A stretch of DNA of 41,184 nucleotides, from UHGV virus genome UHGV-1355377. The stretch is one strand, 5' to 3'. This document shows, in pieces, positions 3,079-14,108 of this stretch. The DNA comes from a virus. The position numbers were made by a program, and so were the translations under genes. Position 1 is the first letter of the stretch. Every line of letters starts with the position of its first letter. Under the pieces are notes generated by a model. The model searched no databases, was not told the origin of the DNA, and saw only the letters and a program-made list of their open reading frames with translations.

Positions 3079-3651
3079 TTATTCTTTATCATCTGATTCA
3101 TCATCAAAAAGATGTTTACATTCTTTTTGCTTCCTATCATAATCAGCATCCACTTTATCTAGAAATTGATTGATTTTAAGTTTCTCTTCATCAGTAAATA
3201 CTTTATCAGGGTCTGGTGAATGCGCAGCTAAAGTATCATATTTTTTCTTGTTAATGTTAACCACATTATTAGAAGCTTTGTTTTGTTTTTCTAAATGAGA
3301 CTTAGCTTCGTTATATATAAGCTGTTGGAGCTTGGGTTCTAACTGGTTGAATATAGGTACTATGTCGAAGTCATTTTTTTCACTAGATCTTTGTTCGTCA
3401 GTGATTCTTTTTTTAGAGACATCAAACCCCATTAGCCATGCTTCGTTAACATCTAAAGTTTTTGACAGAAGATAAATTCTATTTTGGTCAGGTGATTGCT
3501 TTCCAGTTACATATTGTGACAAAGTACTTTTACTCATTTTTATATTTAATTCTTTTTGATATGGTTCTGACAAACGCAGAATATCAACTTGTTTTAAATT
3601 GCGCTCACTCATAAGTTGCTTTAGACGAGCAGATGTTTTAACTCTATCCAT
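3079..3651 (-). CDS. Prophage repressor, XRE-family HTH (ImmR/CI-like)
   Basis: N-terminal HTH_3-like segment (LKQLMSERNLKQVDILRLS...TLSQYVTG). Divergent from the cro-like gene, with operator-bearing intergenic region between them. Confidence 0.8.
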   Translation of the reverse strand: MDRVKTSARLKQLMSERNLKQVDILRLSEPYQKELNIKMSKSTLSQYVTGKQSPDQNRIYLLSKTLDVNEAWLMGFDVSKKRITDEQRSSEKNDFDIVPIFNQLEPKLQQLIYNEAKSHLEKQNKASNNVVNINKKKYDTLAAHSPDPDKVFTDEEKLKINQFLDKVDADYDRKQKECKHLFDDESDDKE

Positions 3652-3680: not shown

Positions 3681-3791
3681 CAAGATATTGAATATATCTT
3701 CAACGAAAAAATTCATGAATCATGAACTTTTTCGTTGACATTAAGAAATGAACAATGTATTATATGGTTATAAAGTTCATGTTCATGAACT
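3681..3791. promoter_or_regulatory. Divergent PR/PL-like control region with repeated palindromic operators (GTTCATGAAC-type half-sites)
   Basis: AAGATAT-tgaat-ATATCTT palindrome at 3683-3701. ATTCATGAATCATGAAC at 3711-3727 and AGTTCATGTTCATGAACT at 3774-3791 are near-perfect palindromes. TTGACA (3735-3740), 17-bp spacer, TATTAT (3758-3763) points toward cro. Confidence 0.65.
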
Positions 3792-4043: not shown

Positions 4044-4124
4044 TTTTGGAAGTATACAAATGAAAAAGGAAAAGTGTTCCATTAATGGAACGAAAGACAA
4101 CCAGAATAGAAGGGATGAAATCAT

Positions 4125-10317: not shown

Positions 10318-10545
10318 ATGAAATTAACTAGTGTGACATTTAAGCCGTCGGCTGAACGTTTTCCGCCAATTGTGGCAATAGATTTAGACCAATTAACACC
10401 AGAGGAATACGTGACACTTAGAAATTTGGGGTATGACACGCAACTTTCCAAAATTACAAAAAGGACCTTTGAAGAGTTGGAAGGCCATTTGGGAATTCGA
10501 GGAGACGTTGCAAAGAAAAATGGATTTTATGTATTAATCAAATAA
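10318..10545 (+). CDS. Small hypothetical protein, first gene of the MTase-recombinase cassette
   Basis: 75-aa ORF preceded by GTGAGGTAAAAAAATG. Confidence 0.45.
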   Translation: MKLTSVTFKPSAERFPPIVAIDLDQLTPEEYVTLRNLGYDTQLSKITKRTFEELEGHLGIRGDVAKKNGFYVLIK

Positions 10546-10549
10546 TCAG

Positions 10550-10595
10550 AAAGGAGTGGAGTTTGTGGCCACAGTAAAGAATTCTTTACTCCTTT
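10550..10595 (+). promoter_or_regulatory. Nested-palindrome element A (SD arm / GC palindrome / AT palindrome / anti-SD arm) between upstream stop and C5-MTase start
   Basis: AAAGGAGT (10550-57) pairs with ACTCCTTT (10588-95). Enclosed are TGTGGCCACA (10564-73) and AAAGAATTCTTT (10576-87). ATG follows 6 nt after. Confidence 0.6.
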
Positions 10596-10601
10596 GAAAT
10601 T

Positions 10602-11345
10602 ATGATAGTATGGGCACTATTTGATAGTGGGAACGGATGTTATAAGCGTTCTGCACAAAAGTTTGAAGATATAGAAATATACAGCATAGGTTTGGATATT
10701 GAAAATAAGAATGACCATTTTATTCATCTGAATTTAGCGGACTATTCTTATATGTTTAATGATAATAAATTATTCAAAGTTTTAGACAAATTACCAAAGC
10801 CAGATTTAATCATTGCAAGCCCACCATGTGAAAGCTGGTCAGTAGCTAGTGCAATGAAAAATGGTAATGCTTGTTGGAAAAGAGAAGATGTAACAGATAA
10901 TTTATTTGCACCACAGATATTACCAAGCCCGTTTACTATAAGAACCACAAAAGATTACGAAGATACTAATTATGTTTATGAACGACAATTTTTAAAAAGA
11001 GTGAATGGTGAGTTAACGGTTTTTAATACTATAAAAATTATAAAAAAGTACCAACCTAGATATTTCATTATTGAGAACCCGGCTAATGGTAAAATTTGGG
11101 AATATATTGAAGATGTCTTGAATTTTAAACTACCATTTAAAAATTTAACCAGGTATAACAATTATGATTATCCATTACAGAAGCCCACGAAATTTGCCAG
11201 TAATATTCATTTGGGATTGAAAAATAAAGTTATTAAACAAGAAATTGCCTGGAGCAATTTTTCCAAAAGCTATAATGAACGATCAAATATTCCAGAAAAA
11301 TTAGTGGATGACATATTTAAAAAAGTTTTAGAGAAAAATAAATAG
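10602..11345 (+). CDS. C5-cytosine DNA methyltransferase catalytic-domain protein, short (motifs I, IV, VI, VIII present; TRD and motifs IX-X absent)
   Basis: Motif I LFDSGNG. Motif IV PDLIIASPPCESWSVAS, matching the PDL..GGFPCQ.FS.AG pattern with catalytic Cys. Motif VI PRYFIIENP (ENV). DYPLQKPTK resembles motif VIII. Only 247 aa. Confidence 0.5.
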   Translation: MIVWALFDSGNGCYKRSAQKFEDIEIYSIGLDIENKNDHFIHLNLADYSYMFNDNKLFKVLDKLPKPDLIIASPPCESWSVASAMKNGNACWKREDVTDNLFAPQILPSPFTIRTTKDYEDTNYVYERQFLKRVNGELTVFNTIKIIKKYQPRYFIIENPANGKIWEYIEDVLNFKLPFKNLTRYNNYDYPLQKPTKFASNIHLGLKNKVIKQEIAWSNFSKSYNERSNIPEKLVDDIFKKVLEKNK

Positions 11346-11393
11346 AAAGGAGCGGAGATTTGCGGCCGCGATTAAAAAGCTTTTTGCTCCTTT
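11346..11393 (+). promoter_or_regulatory. Nested-palindrome element B, paralogue of element A, between C5-MTase stop and N6-MTase start
   Basis: AAAGGAGC (11346-53) pairs with GCTCCTTT (11386-93). Enclosed are GCGGCCGC (11362-69) and AAAAAGCTTTTT (11374-85). ATG follows 7 nt after. Every difference from element A is a compensatory double change. Confidence 0.6.
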
Positions 11394-11400
11394 AAAAACG

Positions 11401-12561
11401 ATGAAATTAACAACAGAAAAAATAAATGAACTGTTAGGTGTTGATGATGCCTACAAAGCGCCAGAAGCGCTCATGAATATATTACTAAATCGTGATAAAC
11501 GAGAAATCGTGTTTAACAGATTTTTAGAAATAGAAAAGGATTTAACTTTCGATTGGTTTCACGAATATTTTCAAGAAGAACATGCTGATCGAAAGCAAAA
11601 GAAACAAGACTTCACGCCAAACTCAGTTGGAAAAGTGTTGTCACTGATTTTAGACCATTCAGAGTCAACTTTAGATGTTGCTGCTGGCACTGGTGGATTA
11701 ACGATAAAAAAATGGTGGAACGATGGACAACCAACAAACAACGAGTATCTTTGCGAAGAGCTATCAGACAGAGCAGTGCCATTCTTACTATTCAATTTAA
11801 TGATTAGGGGCATGAAAGCTCAAGTGATTCACGGTGATAGCCTAAGCGGTGTGACGAAAAAAGTATATATAATTTCAGATTACGAATTAACAGAAATAAA
11901 CGAAGAATTAGCAATTGAAAAGGTAGATGCTGTAATTTCGAATCCGCCCTACTCAGCAAAATGGGATGCTAGTCCAACGTTGCTAGATGATCCAAGGTTT
12001 AGTCATTACGAAAAGTTAGCACCAAAAACAAAAGCAGATTTTGCATTCTTGCTACATGGTTTTTATCGTTTAAAAGATTCGGGGACAATGGCAGTTGTCT
12101 TGCCGCACGGTGTTCTTTTCCGTGGTGCCGCTGAAGGTGTTATTCGTAAAAAATTATTAGAAGATGGCAGTATTGATGCAGTTATTGGATTGCCTGCTAA
12201 CTTATTCTTTGGCACGTCAATACCAACGGTAATAATTGTTTTAAAGAAAAATAGACAAACACGTGATGTCATGTTTATTGATTCTAGCAAAGAATTTGAT
12301 AAAGGAAAAAATCAAAACTCTTTATCAGACGATCACATCAATAAAATTATTCACACATATAAAGAACGAAAAGACATCGAGAAATATGCTCATTTAGCTA
12401 GCTATGATGAAATAACAGAAAATGACTTTAACTTGAATATACCAAGATTTGTAGACACATTCGAAGAAGAAGAGCCAATCAATCCATTCGAGTTATTAGC
12501 AGATATAAGAAAAACGAATGAAGAGCTAGCTAAAGCAGAAAAAAACTTGTCTCAATGCTAG
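11401..12561 (+). CDS. N6-adenine DNA methyltransferase, HsdM-like (gamma-class) orphan
   Basis: Motif I VAAGTGGL, motif IV NPPYSAKWD, and HsdM-like MAVVLPHGVLFRG block. 386 aa; no hsdS or hsdR nearby. Confidence 0.75.
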   Translation: MKLTTEKINELLGVDDAYKAPEALMNILLNRDKREIVFNRFLEIEKDLTFDWFHEYFQEEHADRKQKKQDFTPNSVGKVLSLILDHSESTLDVAAGTGGLTIKKWWNDGQPTNNEYLCEELSDRAVPFLLFNLMIRGMKAQVIHGDSLSGVTKKVYIISDYELTEINEELAIEKVDAVISNPPYSAKWDASPTLLDDPRFSHYEKLAPKTKADFAFLLHGFYRLKDSGTMAVVLPHGVLFRGAAEGVIRKKLLEDGSIDAVIGLPANLFFGTSIPTVIIVLKKNRQTRDVMFIDSSKEFDKGKNQNSLSDDHINKIIHTYKERKDIEKYAHLASYDEITENDFNLNIPRFVDTFEEEEPINPFELLADIRKTNEELAKAEKNLSQC

Positions 12562-12627
12562 ATGAGTTAGTCGTTGATACTGATGAATCAAGAGCGTTAA
12601 TTCAAGCAACAAAAGAGGTGTTCGGAA

Positions 12628-13584
12628 ATGGCTAAAAATTCAAAACAAACAGAGAGAACCTTTGCCAGTTATTTTGCTGAATGGATTGCAACTTATAAAG
12701 AAGGGGCAATTGCAGAAATATCAGTCAATAAGTATTACTATGCGTTAGATTTTATTTTAAAAACAATACCGTCGTTAAAAATAAAGGATTTAGACAGACG
12801 TGCCTATCAGAATGTGTTGAACGAGTACGCAAAAACACACGAGCGACAAACAACAATGGATTTTCACCATCAAGTGAAATCATGCATCCAAGACATTTTC
12901 CATGATGGGTTGATAGAAAGAGATCCAACATATAAAGCAGTAATAAAAGGACGTCCTCCAGTTCGAAAGAAAAAGAAAAAATTTCTACAGAAAGAAGAAC
13001 TAAGAAAGCTTATAAGTTCATTGGACTTAAGTCCCGAAATTAGTATTGACTGGTTTATTTTAATTATAGCAAAAACGGGTCTGCGTTACGCAGAAGCATT
13101 AGCTTTAACGCCAGCGGATTTTGATTGGTCAGCTCGCACACTAAGAGTAAACAAGACATGGAACTACAAAAGCACCCAAGGCGGCTTTAAGAGTACGAAA
13201 ACAACGAGTTCAGAAAGAACAATTAGCATAGATTTTCAAATTGTTGGTCAGTTTCAACTAGTGATTAAAGATTTGCCAGCAAATGAACCGATTTTCGTTG
13301 AAAAATTTGAAGATGGTTCTTATAAAAGACAATTCAATTCAACTTACAACAATTTTCTAGTGAGCGAATGCAAGCACTTAGGGATAACACCTATCAGCCT
13401 GCACGGTTTACGTCACACGCATGCAAGTGTATTGCTTGCTGCTGGAGTATCGATTCATAGTATTTCCGCTCGTTTAGGTCATGCGAATATAGGTGTTACA
13501 CAAGAAACTTATGCACATGTTTTGGACGAGTTACAAAGAAAAGACGATGAAAAAATGATGGGCGCATTAATGCAGTTAGCTTAA
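12628..13584 (+). CDS. Second tyrosine recombinase (Xer/phage-integrase family), internal to the prophage
   Basis: C-terminal catalytic signature HGLRHTHASVLLAAG...ARLGHANIGVTQETYAHV (R, HxxR, Y). 318 aa. RBS AAAGAGGTG. Confidence 0.8.
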   Translation: MAKNSKQTERTFASYFAEWIATYKEGAIAEISVNKYYYALDFILKTIPSLKIKDLDRRAYQNVLNEYAKTHERQTTMDFHHQVKSCIQDIFHDGLIERDPTYKAVIKGRPPVRKKKKKFLQKEELRKLISSLDLSPEISIDWFILIIAKTGLRYAEALALTPADFDWSARTLRVNKTWNYKSTQGGFKSTKTTSSERTISIDFQIVGQFQLVIKDLPANEPIFVEKFEDGSYKRQFNSTYNNFLVSECKHLGITPISLHGLRHTHASVLLAAGVSIHSISARLGHANIGVTQETYAHVLDELQRKDDEKMMGALMQLA

Positions 13585-13601
13585 ACGAGGTGAATCAATA
13601 C

Positions 13602-14108
13602 ATGGCTAAAAAATGGACAGAAGATGACGACATTTATTTAGAATATTTTGTTTTTGAAGGCGACACTTTAGTAGAAGAAGCTGCTGATTTTTTAGGTAGA
13701 AGCTTTGGTGCTGTTTGTACGAGGCTAACAGAATTGAGAAAAAAAGACCCAGAAGTGCGGTATTTAAAGCGGCGTTGGTCTAAAAAAGAAGATGATTTTC
13801 TACGTAGAAACTACAGGTCCATATCAACAAATGATTTAGCATTAGCATTAAATAGAACTACTGAAGCAGTTAAATCTAGAAGAGCATTTCTCGGTTTGAC
13901 TTTGATACGACCAATAACGCCAAGAAAAGAAGAGATACTTGAATTGATTAAGAAAGGTTATTACAGACCACAAATAGCAAAAGCTCTCAATATAGATGAA
14001 AAATCACTTAGTAAATTTTTAAAGATAAACAATATATATTGTCCAGCTGTACCTTATGAAAAACGAACAAAAGAAGTAAAAAAATATATTTACAAACAAT
14101 ACAGATAA
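13602..14108 (+). CDS. Myb/SANT-like tandem-repeat protein with C-terminal HTH
   Basis: Two repeats: WTEDDDIYL...GRSFGAVCTRLTELRK and WSKKEDDFL...NRTTEAVKSRRAFLGL (W-x2-E-D-D-x-L...R). C-terminal ILELIKKGYYRPQIAKALNIDEKSLSKFLK is HTH-like. Start likely ATG 13602 after GAGGTGA. Confidence 0.5.
   Translation: MAKKWTEDDDIYLEYFVFEGDTLVEEAADFLGRSFGAVCTRLTELRKKDPEVRYLKRRWSKKEDDFLRRNYRSISTNDLALALNRTTEAVKSRRAFLGLTLIRPITPRKEEILELIKKGYYRPQIAKALNIDEKSLSKFLKINNIYCPAVPYEKRTKEVKKYIYKQYR

Follow-up and report, generated by a model that had tools for sequence, protein, structure and literature searches.

The locus and its two elements

The 41,184-nucleotide stretch of DNA analysed here (UHGV virus genome UHGV-1355377, referred to below as the window) is recognised by sequence similarity as an Enterococcus faecalis temperate phage, with VEsP-1, IME197, phiEf11 and the phiFL phages as relatives, and encodes an Ltp-type lipoprotein and, at its left end, an integrase. 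Two consecutive methyltransferase (MTase) genes lie on its plus strand. MTase 1 (10602..11345) is a 247-aa C5-cytosine-MTase-like protein matching Pfam PF00145, the N-terminus of which is kept in distant orthologues, and MTase 2 (11401..12561) is an HsdM-like N6-adenine MTase matching Pfam PF02384, with TIGR00497 falling below its cutoff. Upstream of each is a ~47-nt element of nested inverted repeats, element A at 10550..10595 and element B at 11346..11393 (both on the plus strand), and these are the subject of this analysis. The positions and sequences given for them in an earlier note on this DNA were confirmed base for base.

Element A, from arm to arm, can be read as AAAGGAGT-GGAG-TTT-GTGGCCAC-AGT-AAAGAATTCTTT-ACTCCTTT. 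Its 5' arm (AAAGGAGT, 10550..10557) is a perfect Shine-Dalgarno (SD) sequence, the only one available to MTase 1, and is followed directly by a second GGAG (10558..10561), which is proposed below as an alternative partner for the CUCC of the 3' arm. There follow a GC-rich perfect palindrome, P2 (TGTGGCCACA, 10564..10573), a second palindrome, P3, and the 3' arm (ACTCCTTT, 10588..10595), which is complementary to the SD arm and mimics the anti-SD of 16S ribosomal RNA. The AT palindrome that had been noted in A is present, though what had been described is only its core (AAAGAATTCTTT, 10576-10587); P3 extends over 18 bp (AGTAAAGAATTCTTTACT, 10573..10590), overlaps the 3' arm and is the longest perfect palindrome in the window. 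Element B has the same construction, AAAGGAGC-GGAG-ATTT-GCGGCCGC-GATT-AAAAAGCTTTTT-GCTCCTTT, with the 5' arm AAAGGAGC at 11346..11353, the second GGAG at 11354..11357, P2 (GCGGCCGC, a sequence with a single copy in the window) at 11362..11369, P3 (AAAAAGCTTTTT) at 11374..11385 and the 3' arm GCTCCTTT at 11386..11393. In both elements one arm is an exact SD and the other its complement.

Each element occupies the space between the stop codon of the preceding gene and the start of the MTase. The TAA stop (10543..10545) of an upstream 75-aa open reading frame (ORF, 10318-10545) is 4 nt 5' of element A, and element B begins right behind the TAG stop of MTase 1 (11343-45), such that the upstream stops end at 10545 and 11345 and the MTase ATGs follow at 10602 and 11401. 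The 3' arm ends 6 nt before the ATG in A and 7 nt before it in B, in agreement with the spacing of 6-7 nt originally reported. The two elements are strand-specific, and chance is excluded as their origin. The pattern AAGGAG-N20-45-CTCCTT occurs twice in the window, against 0.04 expected, and two occurrences were reached in none of 100 shuffled sequences. A covariance model built from 31 distinct variants of the family described below finds exactly these two elements in the window (A with 66.7 bits at 10550-10596, B with 66.9 bits), scoring ~67 bits on the plus strand versus ~15 bits on the minus strand, with the next-best match in the window at ~10 bits.

A family of elements with a constant layout

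Family members were gathered by pattern scans of IMG/VR, which gave approximately 190 loci, plus one scan of a genome collection. The search of related phages and metagenomes and the covariance model that the earlier note had called for have placed both window elements in a family carried by ~190 phage and prophage loci of Enterococcus, Eremococcus and Clostridia. The order of the parts is fixed, and runs from the stop codon through RARGGAG-Y-GGAG-(N)TTT, P2, 2-4 nt, P3, R-CTCCTTT and a further 5-9 nt to the ATG. P2 is a GC-rich perfect palindrome with the alleles TGGTCGACCA, TGTGGCCACA, TGCGGCCGCA, TGTCGGCCGACA, TGCTGGCCAGCA and others; P3 is an AT-flanked perfect palindrome, of which AAAGAATTCTTT and AAAAAGCTTTTT are two of several alleles. 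When the search is anchored on the inner palindromes, an SD-like 5' arm, the second GGAG and a CTCC 3' arm are found in 145 of 147 instances, and the second GGAG shows no variation in the family. The distance from the upstream stop to the 5' arm is 0-4 nt in 143 of 156 instances (92%), and the spacing from CTCCT to ATG is 8-9 nt in 133 of 170. About 25 of 48 element positions are at least 90% conserved, and diversity is limited, with ~48 distinct element sequences among the ~190 instances.

A divergent branch retains AAAGGAGCGGAG...RCTCCTT with quite different palindromes (CTTCCCGGGAAG and GATGCGCATC), and is hosted by phages of 40-46% GC related to Roseburia phage Jekyll; the element was not found in Jekyll itself. 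Further members from other Enterococcus species, Eremococcus coleocola, an Oscillospiraceae metagenome-assembled genome and a Clostridium sp. came from the genome-collection scan, and have new and again perfect palindromes (TGCGCGCGCA, CAAAGCTTTG, TCCCGGGA, AAAGCGCTTT, TGGTGGCCACCA and GTAAAGACGTCTTTAC).

Two trivial origins can be set aside. A cloning or engineering artefact, for which NotI, EcoRI, HindIII and MscI sites might be taken as a sign, is ruled out by the occurrence of the family in ~190 independent natural contigs. Dispersed repeats resembling repetitive extragenic palindromes or miniature inverted-repeat transposable elements do not fit either, as the 41 kb contain just two copies, each in front of an MTase, and all family members precede DNA-modification genes. 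Decayed copies are observed at loci L037 (minus strand, start ~11626) and L081 (~11317), with a disrupted GC palindrome (GCGTCCGC) and without an ATG behind the element; these look like leftovers after MTase loss.

Genes downstream of the element

At least ten unrelated protein families are encoded directly downstream of the element. These are HsdM-like N6_Mtase proteins, a 154-aa MTase, Dcm-type C5 MTases of 349-527 aa, a 254-aa N6_N4_Mtase, the 247-aa C5-like protein, a 252-aa N6_Mtase-like protein, a DPPY-type N4/N6 MTase, D12-class Dam and a phage Dam-like MTase, the last assigned by its N-terminal motif only, without a profile search. In EFC-1 and phiFL2A the element heads a small 150-aa MTase, in OR846617 a Dcm-type C5 MTase and in OR846605 an HsdM-like MTase, and identical elements are found before different MTase families and before genes that do not encode MTases. 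Two cassettes stand in tandem in this window, in VEsP-1 and in 25 of 161 loci. The genes behind the element are different in the divergent branch, where they encode either a PAPS-reductase-like protein or Cys-rich proteins at the head of a module with a radical-SAM-like protein (recognised by its Cys motif only) and Dam. No family member was found heading a gene outside DNA-modification modules.

The Cys-rich (CxxC) proteins that start these divergent modules, at L087 (2600-4684) and L215 (~6314), are small or repetitive, with lengths of 77 aa and 222 aa. At L087, which is of the Clostridia type, their genes are followed by those for a 302-aa radical-SAM-like protein and a Dam methylase, and a helix-turn-helix (HTH) protein and an integrase are encoded downstream of the modification module too. 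The modules at both loci may represent an uncharacterised DNA-modification pathway.

The relationship between the element and the genes behind it was studied further by fetching relatives of both window MTases by protein similarity. The close orthologues (at least 95% identity, in Enterococcus phages) all have the element, with one exception. By contrast, the distant orthologues (44-74% identity), from phages of the Streptococcus mitis group and Leuconostoc, are all without it; they have an ordinary SD 7-10 nt before the ATG and encode the same N-terminus, and the covariance model has no match in 363 kb of these loci. The expectation that the element would be present and structured upstream of MTase orthologues is hence borne out for the close ones and not for the distant ones. 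As the latter use a normal SD, the element is not intrinsic to these MTase families; judging from this comparison of sequences, it stands in for the normal ribosome-binding site (RBS) in particular phage gene pools. In IME197 the upstream gene of the window is found again, but neither MTase nor element comes after it, and the next gene has a normal SD. This implies that the element belongs to the mobile cassette and not to the slot that the cassette occupies in the phage backbone.

The Streptococcus-type MT247 orthologues at L285-L294 align to the query from residue 23 only, and have a G8-9 homopolymer (TTCGGGGGGGGGC) ~60-75 nt into the MTase gene, a tract that could be phase-variable.

The element as a mosaic junction

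For the 170 instances with enough flanking sequence, the 300 nt on each side were clustered. The 21 upstream and 26 downstream sequence clusters occur in 52 flank combinations. When differently flanked copies are compared, similarity ends 0-3 nt 5' of the arm in approximately 80% of pairs, and on the 3' side it ends within ~15 nt of CTCCT, around the ATG. In several relatives homology to the window stops exactly at element A, and EFC-1 matches only over the element's 66 bp. Hybrid alleles show that crossovers have also occurred inside the element, between the palindromes or within one of them: the element of phiFL2A joins the left half of A to the right half of B, and the L085 allele GTGGCCGC is composed of half of GTGGCCAC and half of GCGGCCGC. 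Since the element is the sole sequence common to the unrelated cassettes and backbones, it is taken to be the site at which cassettes are swapped by homologous recombination.

Features at the RNA level

The 20 nt before the two MTase ATGs have pairing energies with the 16S tail of -0.9 and 0.0 kcal/mol, i.e. they contain no SD, compared with -7 to -15 kcal/mol for most credible genes of the window. The sole SD for the MTase genes is the 5' arm, ~45 nt upstream of the AUG, and the predicted RNA fold pairs this arm with its complement. Constrained folding was applied to 63 distinct variants. In free RNA, the minimum-energy fold pairs the first GGAG with CUCC in 62 of them, at a mean of -15.5 kcal/mol. 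If the SD is blocked, as a ribosome would do, CUCC is predicted to pair instead with the second GGAG in 43 of the 63 (mean -6.9 kcal/mol), closing a three-way junction in which the palindromes form mini-hairpins, and the predicted layout becomes SD, 1 nt, looped-out insert, ~9 nt, AUG.

In the formal pair count of the family, 93.1% of cells are paired, against 83.2% in shuffled sequences (0 of 500 equalling it) and 51-60% in slid registers, and 94.7% of cells are paired in helix 1. The 5'-arm variants GAAGGAG and AAGGGAG carry A-to-G changes that retain G.U pairing. Changes on both sides are seen at three of the five P2 pairs and four of the six P3 pairs, and at one of the eight arm pairs. That arm pair, the eighth, is U:A in ~100 instances, U:G in ~40, C:G in ~23, C:U in 15 and C:A in five. 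The proposition that every difference preserves pairing or palindromy, made for A and B, is correct for these two; it cannot be extended to the family as full compensation, because of the U:G, C:U and C:A forms of this pair.

No promoter-like or terminator-like signal was found at either element. In particular, a Rho-independent terminator is predicted at neither, the enclosed region being 30 nt and the tail UUUGAAA or UUUAAAA. A search of Rfam 15, including the S-adenosylmethionine (SAM) riboswitch classes, gave no match with E values up to 10, the best scores being 13-20 bits against gathering thresholds of 34-90. Most alleles have a TTG or GTG 6-7 nt after the SD, a potential start that is not present in the divergent branch. 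A conserved leader mini-ORF as a general feature was nevertheless rejected, as frame, length and end all vary: among 101 variants, the stop overlaps the ATG in 35, and there are 21 four-codon ORFs, eight in-frame run-ons and ten out-of-frame run-ons.

Symmetry of the palindromes

The palindromes are perfect in ~98% of instances. Across the distinct alleles every ring of both palindromes, the central pair included, shows several Watson-Crick pair types, with both partners changed at the central pairs 20-21 and 36-37. Eight distinct self-complementary tetranucleotides are found at the centres, all of which are palindromic. In 38 of 44 distinct elements there are two palindromes of 8 bp or more, as against 0.2% of composition-matched shuffles. 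Perfect, uninterrupted short palindromes of variable sequence are a hallmark of double-stranded DNA sites read by symmetric dimers, such as restriction-modification enzymes and some regulators.

Evidence for such a reader was sought in the surrounding sequence. The rest of the window shows no depletion of GGCC, GAATTC, AAGCTT or TGGCCA, and no neighbouring protein was found to co-occur consistently with the element. The suggestion in the earlier note that the element might be an operator for a dimeric regulator agrees with the perfect palindrome centres, and lacks a consistently co-occurring candidate protein. Its other suggestion, that the palindromes are target sites by which the MTase regulates itself, is disfavoured: identical elements precede different MTases and genes that are not MTases, so the palindromes are unlikely to be the target of the downstream enzyme, and the sites are not special in the genome. 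The same holds for the operator of a restriction-modification controller (C-protein), as the element is not matched to a cognate protein, and no C-protein or HTH gene was found adjoining it. Alignment of two C5 MTases with M.HaeIII and M.HhaI is limited to the catalytic cores, and is hence uninformative on specificity.

Neighbouring genes and other features of the window

Directly behind the HsdM-like MTase, in the same early operon, is a gene for a second tyrosine recombinase (318 aa, 12628-13584) of the generic phage-integrase type, and then one for a 172-aa protein with a weak GerE/HTH match (13590-14108). The window already has a 434-aa integrase at 195-1499 on the minus strand. The nearest relatives of the 318-aa recombinase in the PDB are prophage and Tn integrases. 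Its orthologues (at least 62% identity) are present in ~21 other loci, always 650-1240 nt after an element and directly behind a full or truncated (217-aa) HsdM-like MTase; neither phiFL2A nor EFC-1, both of which bear the element, has one. The recombinase and the HTH protein were each rejected as an obligate partner of the element, as each is found in only a minority of loci.

MTase 2 is frameshifted in the window (12539-12561), near an A7 run at 12539-12545, and ends in ...AEKNLSQC*. An orthologue at L312, 98% identical to it, has the C-terminus ...AEKELVSMLDELVVDTDES..GNG*. The DNA still codes for the longer C-terminus in another frame (12562-12633), which is closed by a TAA overlapping the start codon of the following gene. 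Possible explanations are a sequencing error, gene decay or a homopolymer switch.

Three further palindromes, ATTCATGAAT, GTTCATGAAC and the 16-bp GTTCCATTAATGGAAC, are located at 3711-3720, 3781-3790 and 4076-4091, in and beside the region from which early genes diverge to the left (3079-3651) and to the right (3810-, 4125-). These are probably operators for repressor and Cro, with sequences unrelated to those of P2 and P3.

Proposed role and alternatives

The existence of a family, its link to DNA-modification cassettes, the mosaic junction, the invariant second GGAG and the DNA-type symmetry of the palindromes all go beyond what the earlier note contained. The interpretation that we favour, although with confidence that reaches only about the midpoint between doubt and belief, is that the element forms the 5' leader of DNA-modification cassettes that are mobile and lack a promoter, in which it would act mainly at the level of the mRNA, as a masked and split RBS coupling translation of the MTase to that of the upstream gene. 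From the observed anatomy, conservation, linkage to cassettes, absence of any other SD, strand specificity and mosaic breakpoints, we infer the coupling, a shift of register and whatever role the palindromes have in the RNA. In free mRNA, the SD of the 5' arm (AAAGGAG) would be paired with the CUCCUUU of the 3' arm, keeping the gene off. With only 0-4 nt between the stop codon and the arm, a ribosome that ends translation of the upstream gene must unwind the arm helix, and a 30S subunit could then bind the freed SD. In the on state the 3' arm would shift register to the second GGAG, looping out the ~30-nt insert with the palindromes as mini-hairpins and placing the SD ~10 nt from the AUG. In many alleles a variant route may be used, in which initiation at the TTG or GTG beyond the SD would be followed by re-initiation at the AUG. 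It follows from this model that MTase translation would be coupled to whatever gene precedes the cassette.

Of the roles that had been suggested at the outset, that of a translational operator or coupling device is accordingly the best supported, by the SD and complement arms, the lack of any other SD, the closeness of the upstream stop and the strand specificity, and further by the replacement of the ordinary SD of distant orthologues. Several points nevertheless weigh against a masked and split RBS. The mechanism is built from sequence and predicted folds, and the latter are of modest stability relative to shuffled sequences (z = -2.6 for A and -1.3 for B). Covariation in the arms is thin, because only one arm pair varies, and it is mismatched in ~11% of instances. 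The helix of the on state is 4-5 bp long and is predicted in 68% of variants, not all; nor is this prediction independent evidence, as GGAG and CUCC are complementary by construction. The self-complementary centres of the palindromes, which are unable to pair in a hairpin, are left unexplained, as is the restriction to DNA-modification genes, and to judge from other phages a plain SD evidently suffices for the same MTases. The perfect dyad symmetry points to an additional DNA-level reader, though it could alternatively arise from a palindrome-perfecting mutational process, e.g. template switching.

Such a reader might be the principal reason for the element, the palindromes binding a dimeric phage or host regulator or a methylation-sensitive protein that controls transcription through the leader or the timing of MTase expression, with the SD and anti-SD arms secondary. 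The perfect centres, the frequency of paired palindromes of at least 8 bp, the two-sided changes at the central pairs and the rarity (~2%) of imperfect variants would all be expected of such an operator. We nonetheless regard it as unlikely, as the palindromes are wholly different among alleles with no candidate regulator that co-varies or co-occurs, and identical elements are found after a variety of upstream genes and in front of different MTases; furthermore, there is no promoter- or terminator-like signal at the element, its sites are not depleted elsewhere in the window, and an operator does not require the strict orientation and the fixed geometry from stop to ATG. A riboswitch sensing SAM or S-adenosylhomocysteine, in which ligand would stabilise or open the SD/anti-SD helix of a small three-way-junction RNA and so tune the MTases, would suit the predicted ~47-nt junction, the ~25 strongly conserved positions and the use of SAM by most of the downstream enzymes. 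It is scarcely credible, given that no Rfam family matches, that the helices are tiny and vary freely in sequence, that perfect palindromy is not explained by it and that the PAPS-reductase-like and Cys-rich proteins are not SAM enzymes. Neither is there much to recommend a relic without a dedicated function, for instance a small palindromic insertion in an ancestral RBS that was kept for its SD and spread with a successful cassette lineage. The confinement of the element to particular phage gene pools, the use of a normal SD by the same MTase families elsewhere and the small number of distinct sequences would be consistent with this; that it is very unlikely is argued by the recurrence of the same architecture, with different yet perfect palindromes, in distant lineages (Clostridia-type phages of 40-46% GC, Eremococcus and other Enterococcus), by the rarity of imperfect palindromes and arm mismatches, and by the occurrence of decayed copies only where the ATG has been lost.

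It seems quite unlikely, too, that the element is a dedicated recombination site, either recognised by a recombinase or nuclease in the manner of attC or cut at its palindromes to trigger replacement of the cassette. The idea draws on much of the mosaic evidence: the element moves with cassettes, marks every cassette boundary and forms tandem arrays, the 52 flank combinations have their breakpoints at its edges, hybrid alleles such as GTGGCCGC and that of phiFL2A exist, and genes of at least ten unrelated families have been joined to it exactly at their ATG. In addition, the inverted, conserved outer cores around a variable palindromic centre resemble attC, and in the window a tyrosine recombinase lies behind the array. 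That recombinase is, however, a generic phage integrase, scoring 39.6 bits against an integron-integrase cutoff of 265, and it is restricted to ~21 loci, always after one MTase type, and missing from phiFL2A and EFC-1. The element has no GTTRRRY cores of attC, it carries only DNA-modification genes, which would not be expected of a general capture site, and the same mosaic pattern would be produced by ordinary homologous recombination at any conserved stretch of 47 bp. A more elaborate and rather improbable version is an integron-like cassette system for anti-restriction genes in temperate phages of Firmicutes, in which the element would head each cassette, the palindromes, which resemble restriction sites, would be DNA cleavage or recombination sites driving rapid MTase swaps between co-resident phages and prophages, and the arms and second GGAG would have evolved so that ribosomes bridge the DNA site and translate the cassette wherever it lands. 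There is a similarly small but real chance that the DNA-level features reflect a dedicated cassette-exchange system of any kind; if so, it would be categorically new.

Orphan MTases borne by phages are a main route for escape from restriction, and their expression and rapid exchange are poorly understood. The element is a compact and directly searchable signature of phage MTase cassettes, and pinpoints the sites of mosaic recombination. It also points to a portable means by which a gene without a promoter could be added to any operon and translated through coupling to the gene before it, while the presence within an RBS of palindromes that are variable yet always perfect hints at an undescribed DNA-level reader or recombination mechanism.

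Comparison with known systems

The earlier note knew of no described motif of this kind, and the Rfam and literature searches agree. No prior description was found in the literature, although coverage was incomplete and this is not proof of absence; the element appears to be undescribed so far. The SAM-III (S-MK box) riboswitch of metK in Lactobacillales is a ~50-nt junction RNA, present in Enterococcus, that uses an SD/anti-SD helix to control the translation of a SAM-related gene. The small junction RNA and the logic of the SD/anti-SD helix are alike; in contrast, the element resembles it neither in sequence nor by Rfam, has SD and anti-SD in the opposite order and has variable helices. In the modular theory of mosaic temperate phages, conserved linker or boundary sequences lie at the junctions of modules. 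The element is likewise a short conserved island located exactly where homology between phages breaks, but differs from such linkers in having an elaborate, selected internal architecture and in being tied to one functional class of genes.

Several properties are shared with integron cassettes and their attC sites, namely promoterless tandem cassettes in the same orientation, a short bounding element with inverted outer cores and a variable palindromic centre, and extensive exchange. Identity with attC and IntI was rejected, on account of the score of the window recombinase (39.6 bits against the TIGR02249 cutoff of 265) and the lack of this recombinase in many element-bearing phages. In place of the attC core sites RYYYAAC ... 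GTTRRRY, the element has the arms AAAGGAGY and RCTCCTTT. Moreover, it is much shorter than attC, lies at the 5' end of the cassette inside the RBS, has perfect palindromes and no integron integrase, and carries only DNA-modification genes.

Hairpins that sequester an SD or mediate translational coupling are known from the coat-replicase junction of MS2 and the leaders of T4 gene e, I-TevI and mobE (PMC3014915, PMC5934652). The RBS is masked intramolecularly in these cases as in the element, and is opened by upstream translation, as proposed here, or in an alternative transcript. The difference is that their masked SD adjoins the start codon, whereas in the element it is the masked SD that is distal and the anti-SD that is next to the AUG, and that the element is a conserved module common to more than ten gene families. 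In T4 genes 38 and 25, the RBS is split, with an SD 22-27 nt from the AUG and an intervening RNA structure that is proposed to bring it within working distance (PMC3014915). A distant SD (~45 nt here), a proposed bridging structure and a position at a phage intercistronic junction are common to both. Unlike the element, however, the T4 genes do not have a sequestered SD, whereas here a mimic of the anti-SD would mask it and a shift of register to the second GGAG would be needed; furthermore, the insert of the element consists of two perfect DNA palindromes, and on the evidence of its sequence contexts it appears portable between many unrelated genes. In its proposed function the element is most like an SD-sequestering coupling hairpin combined with a split RBS of the T4 type.

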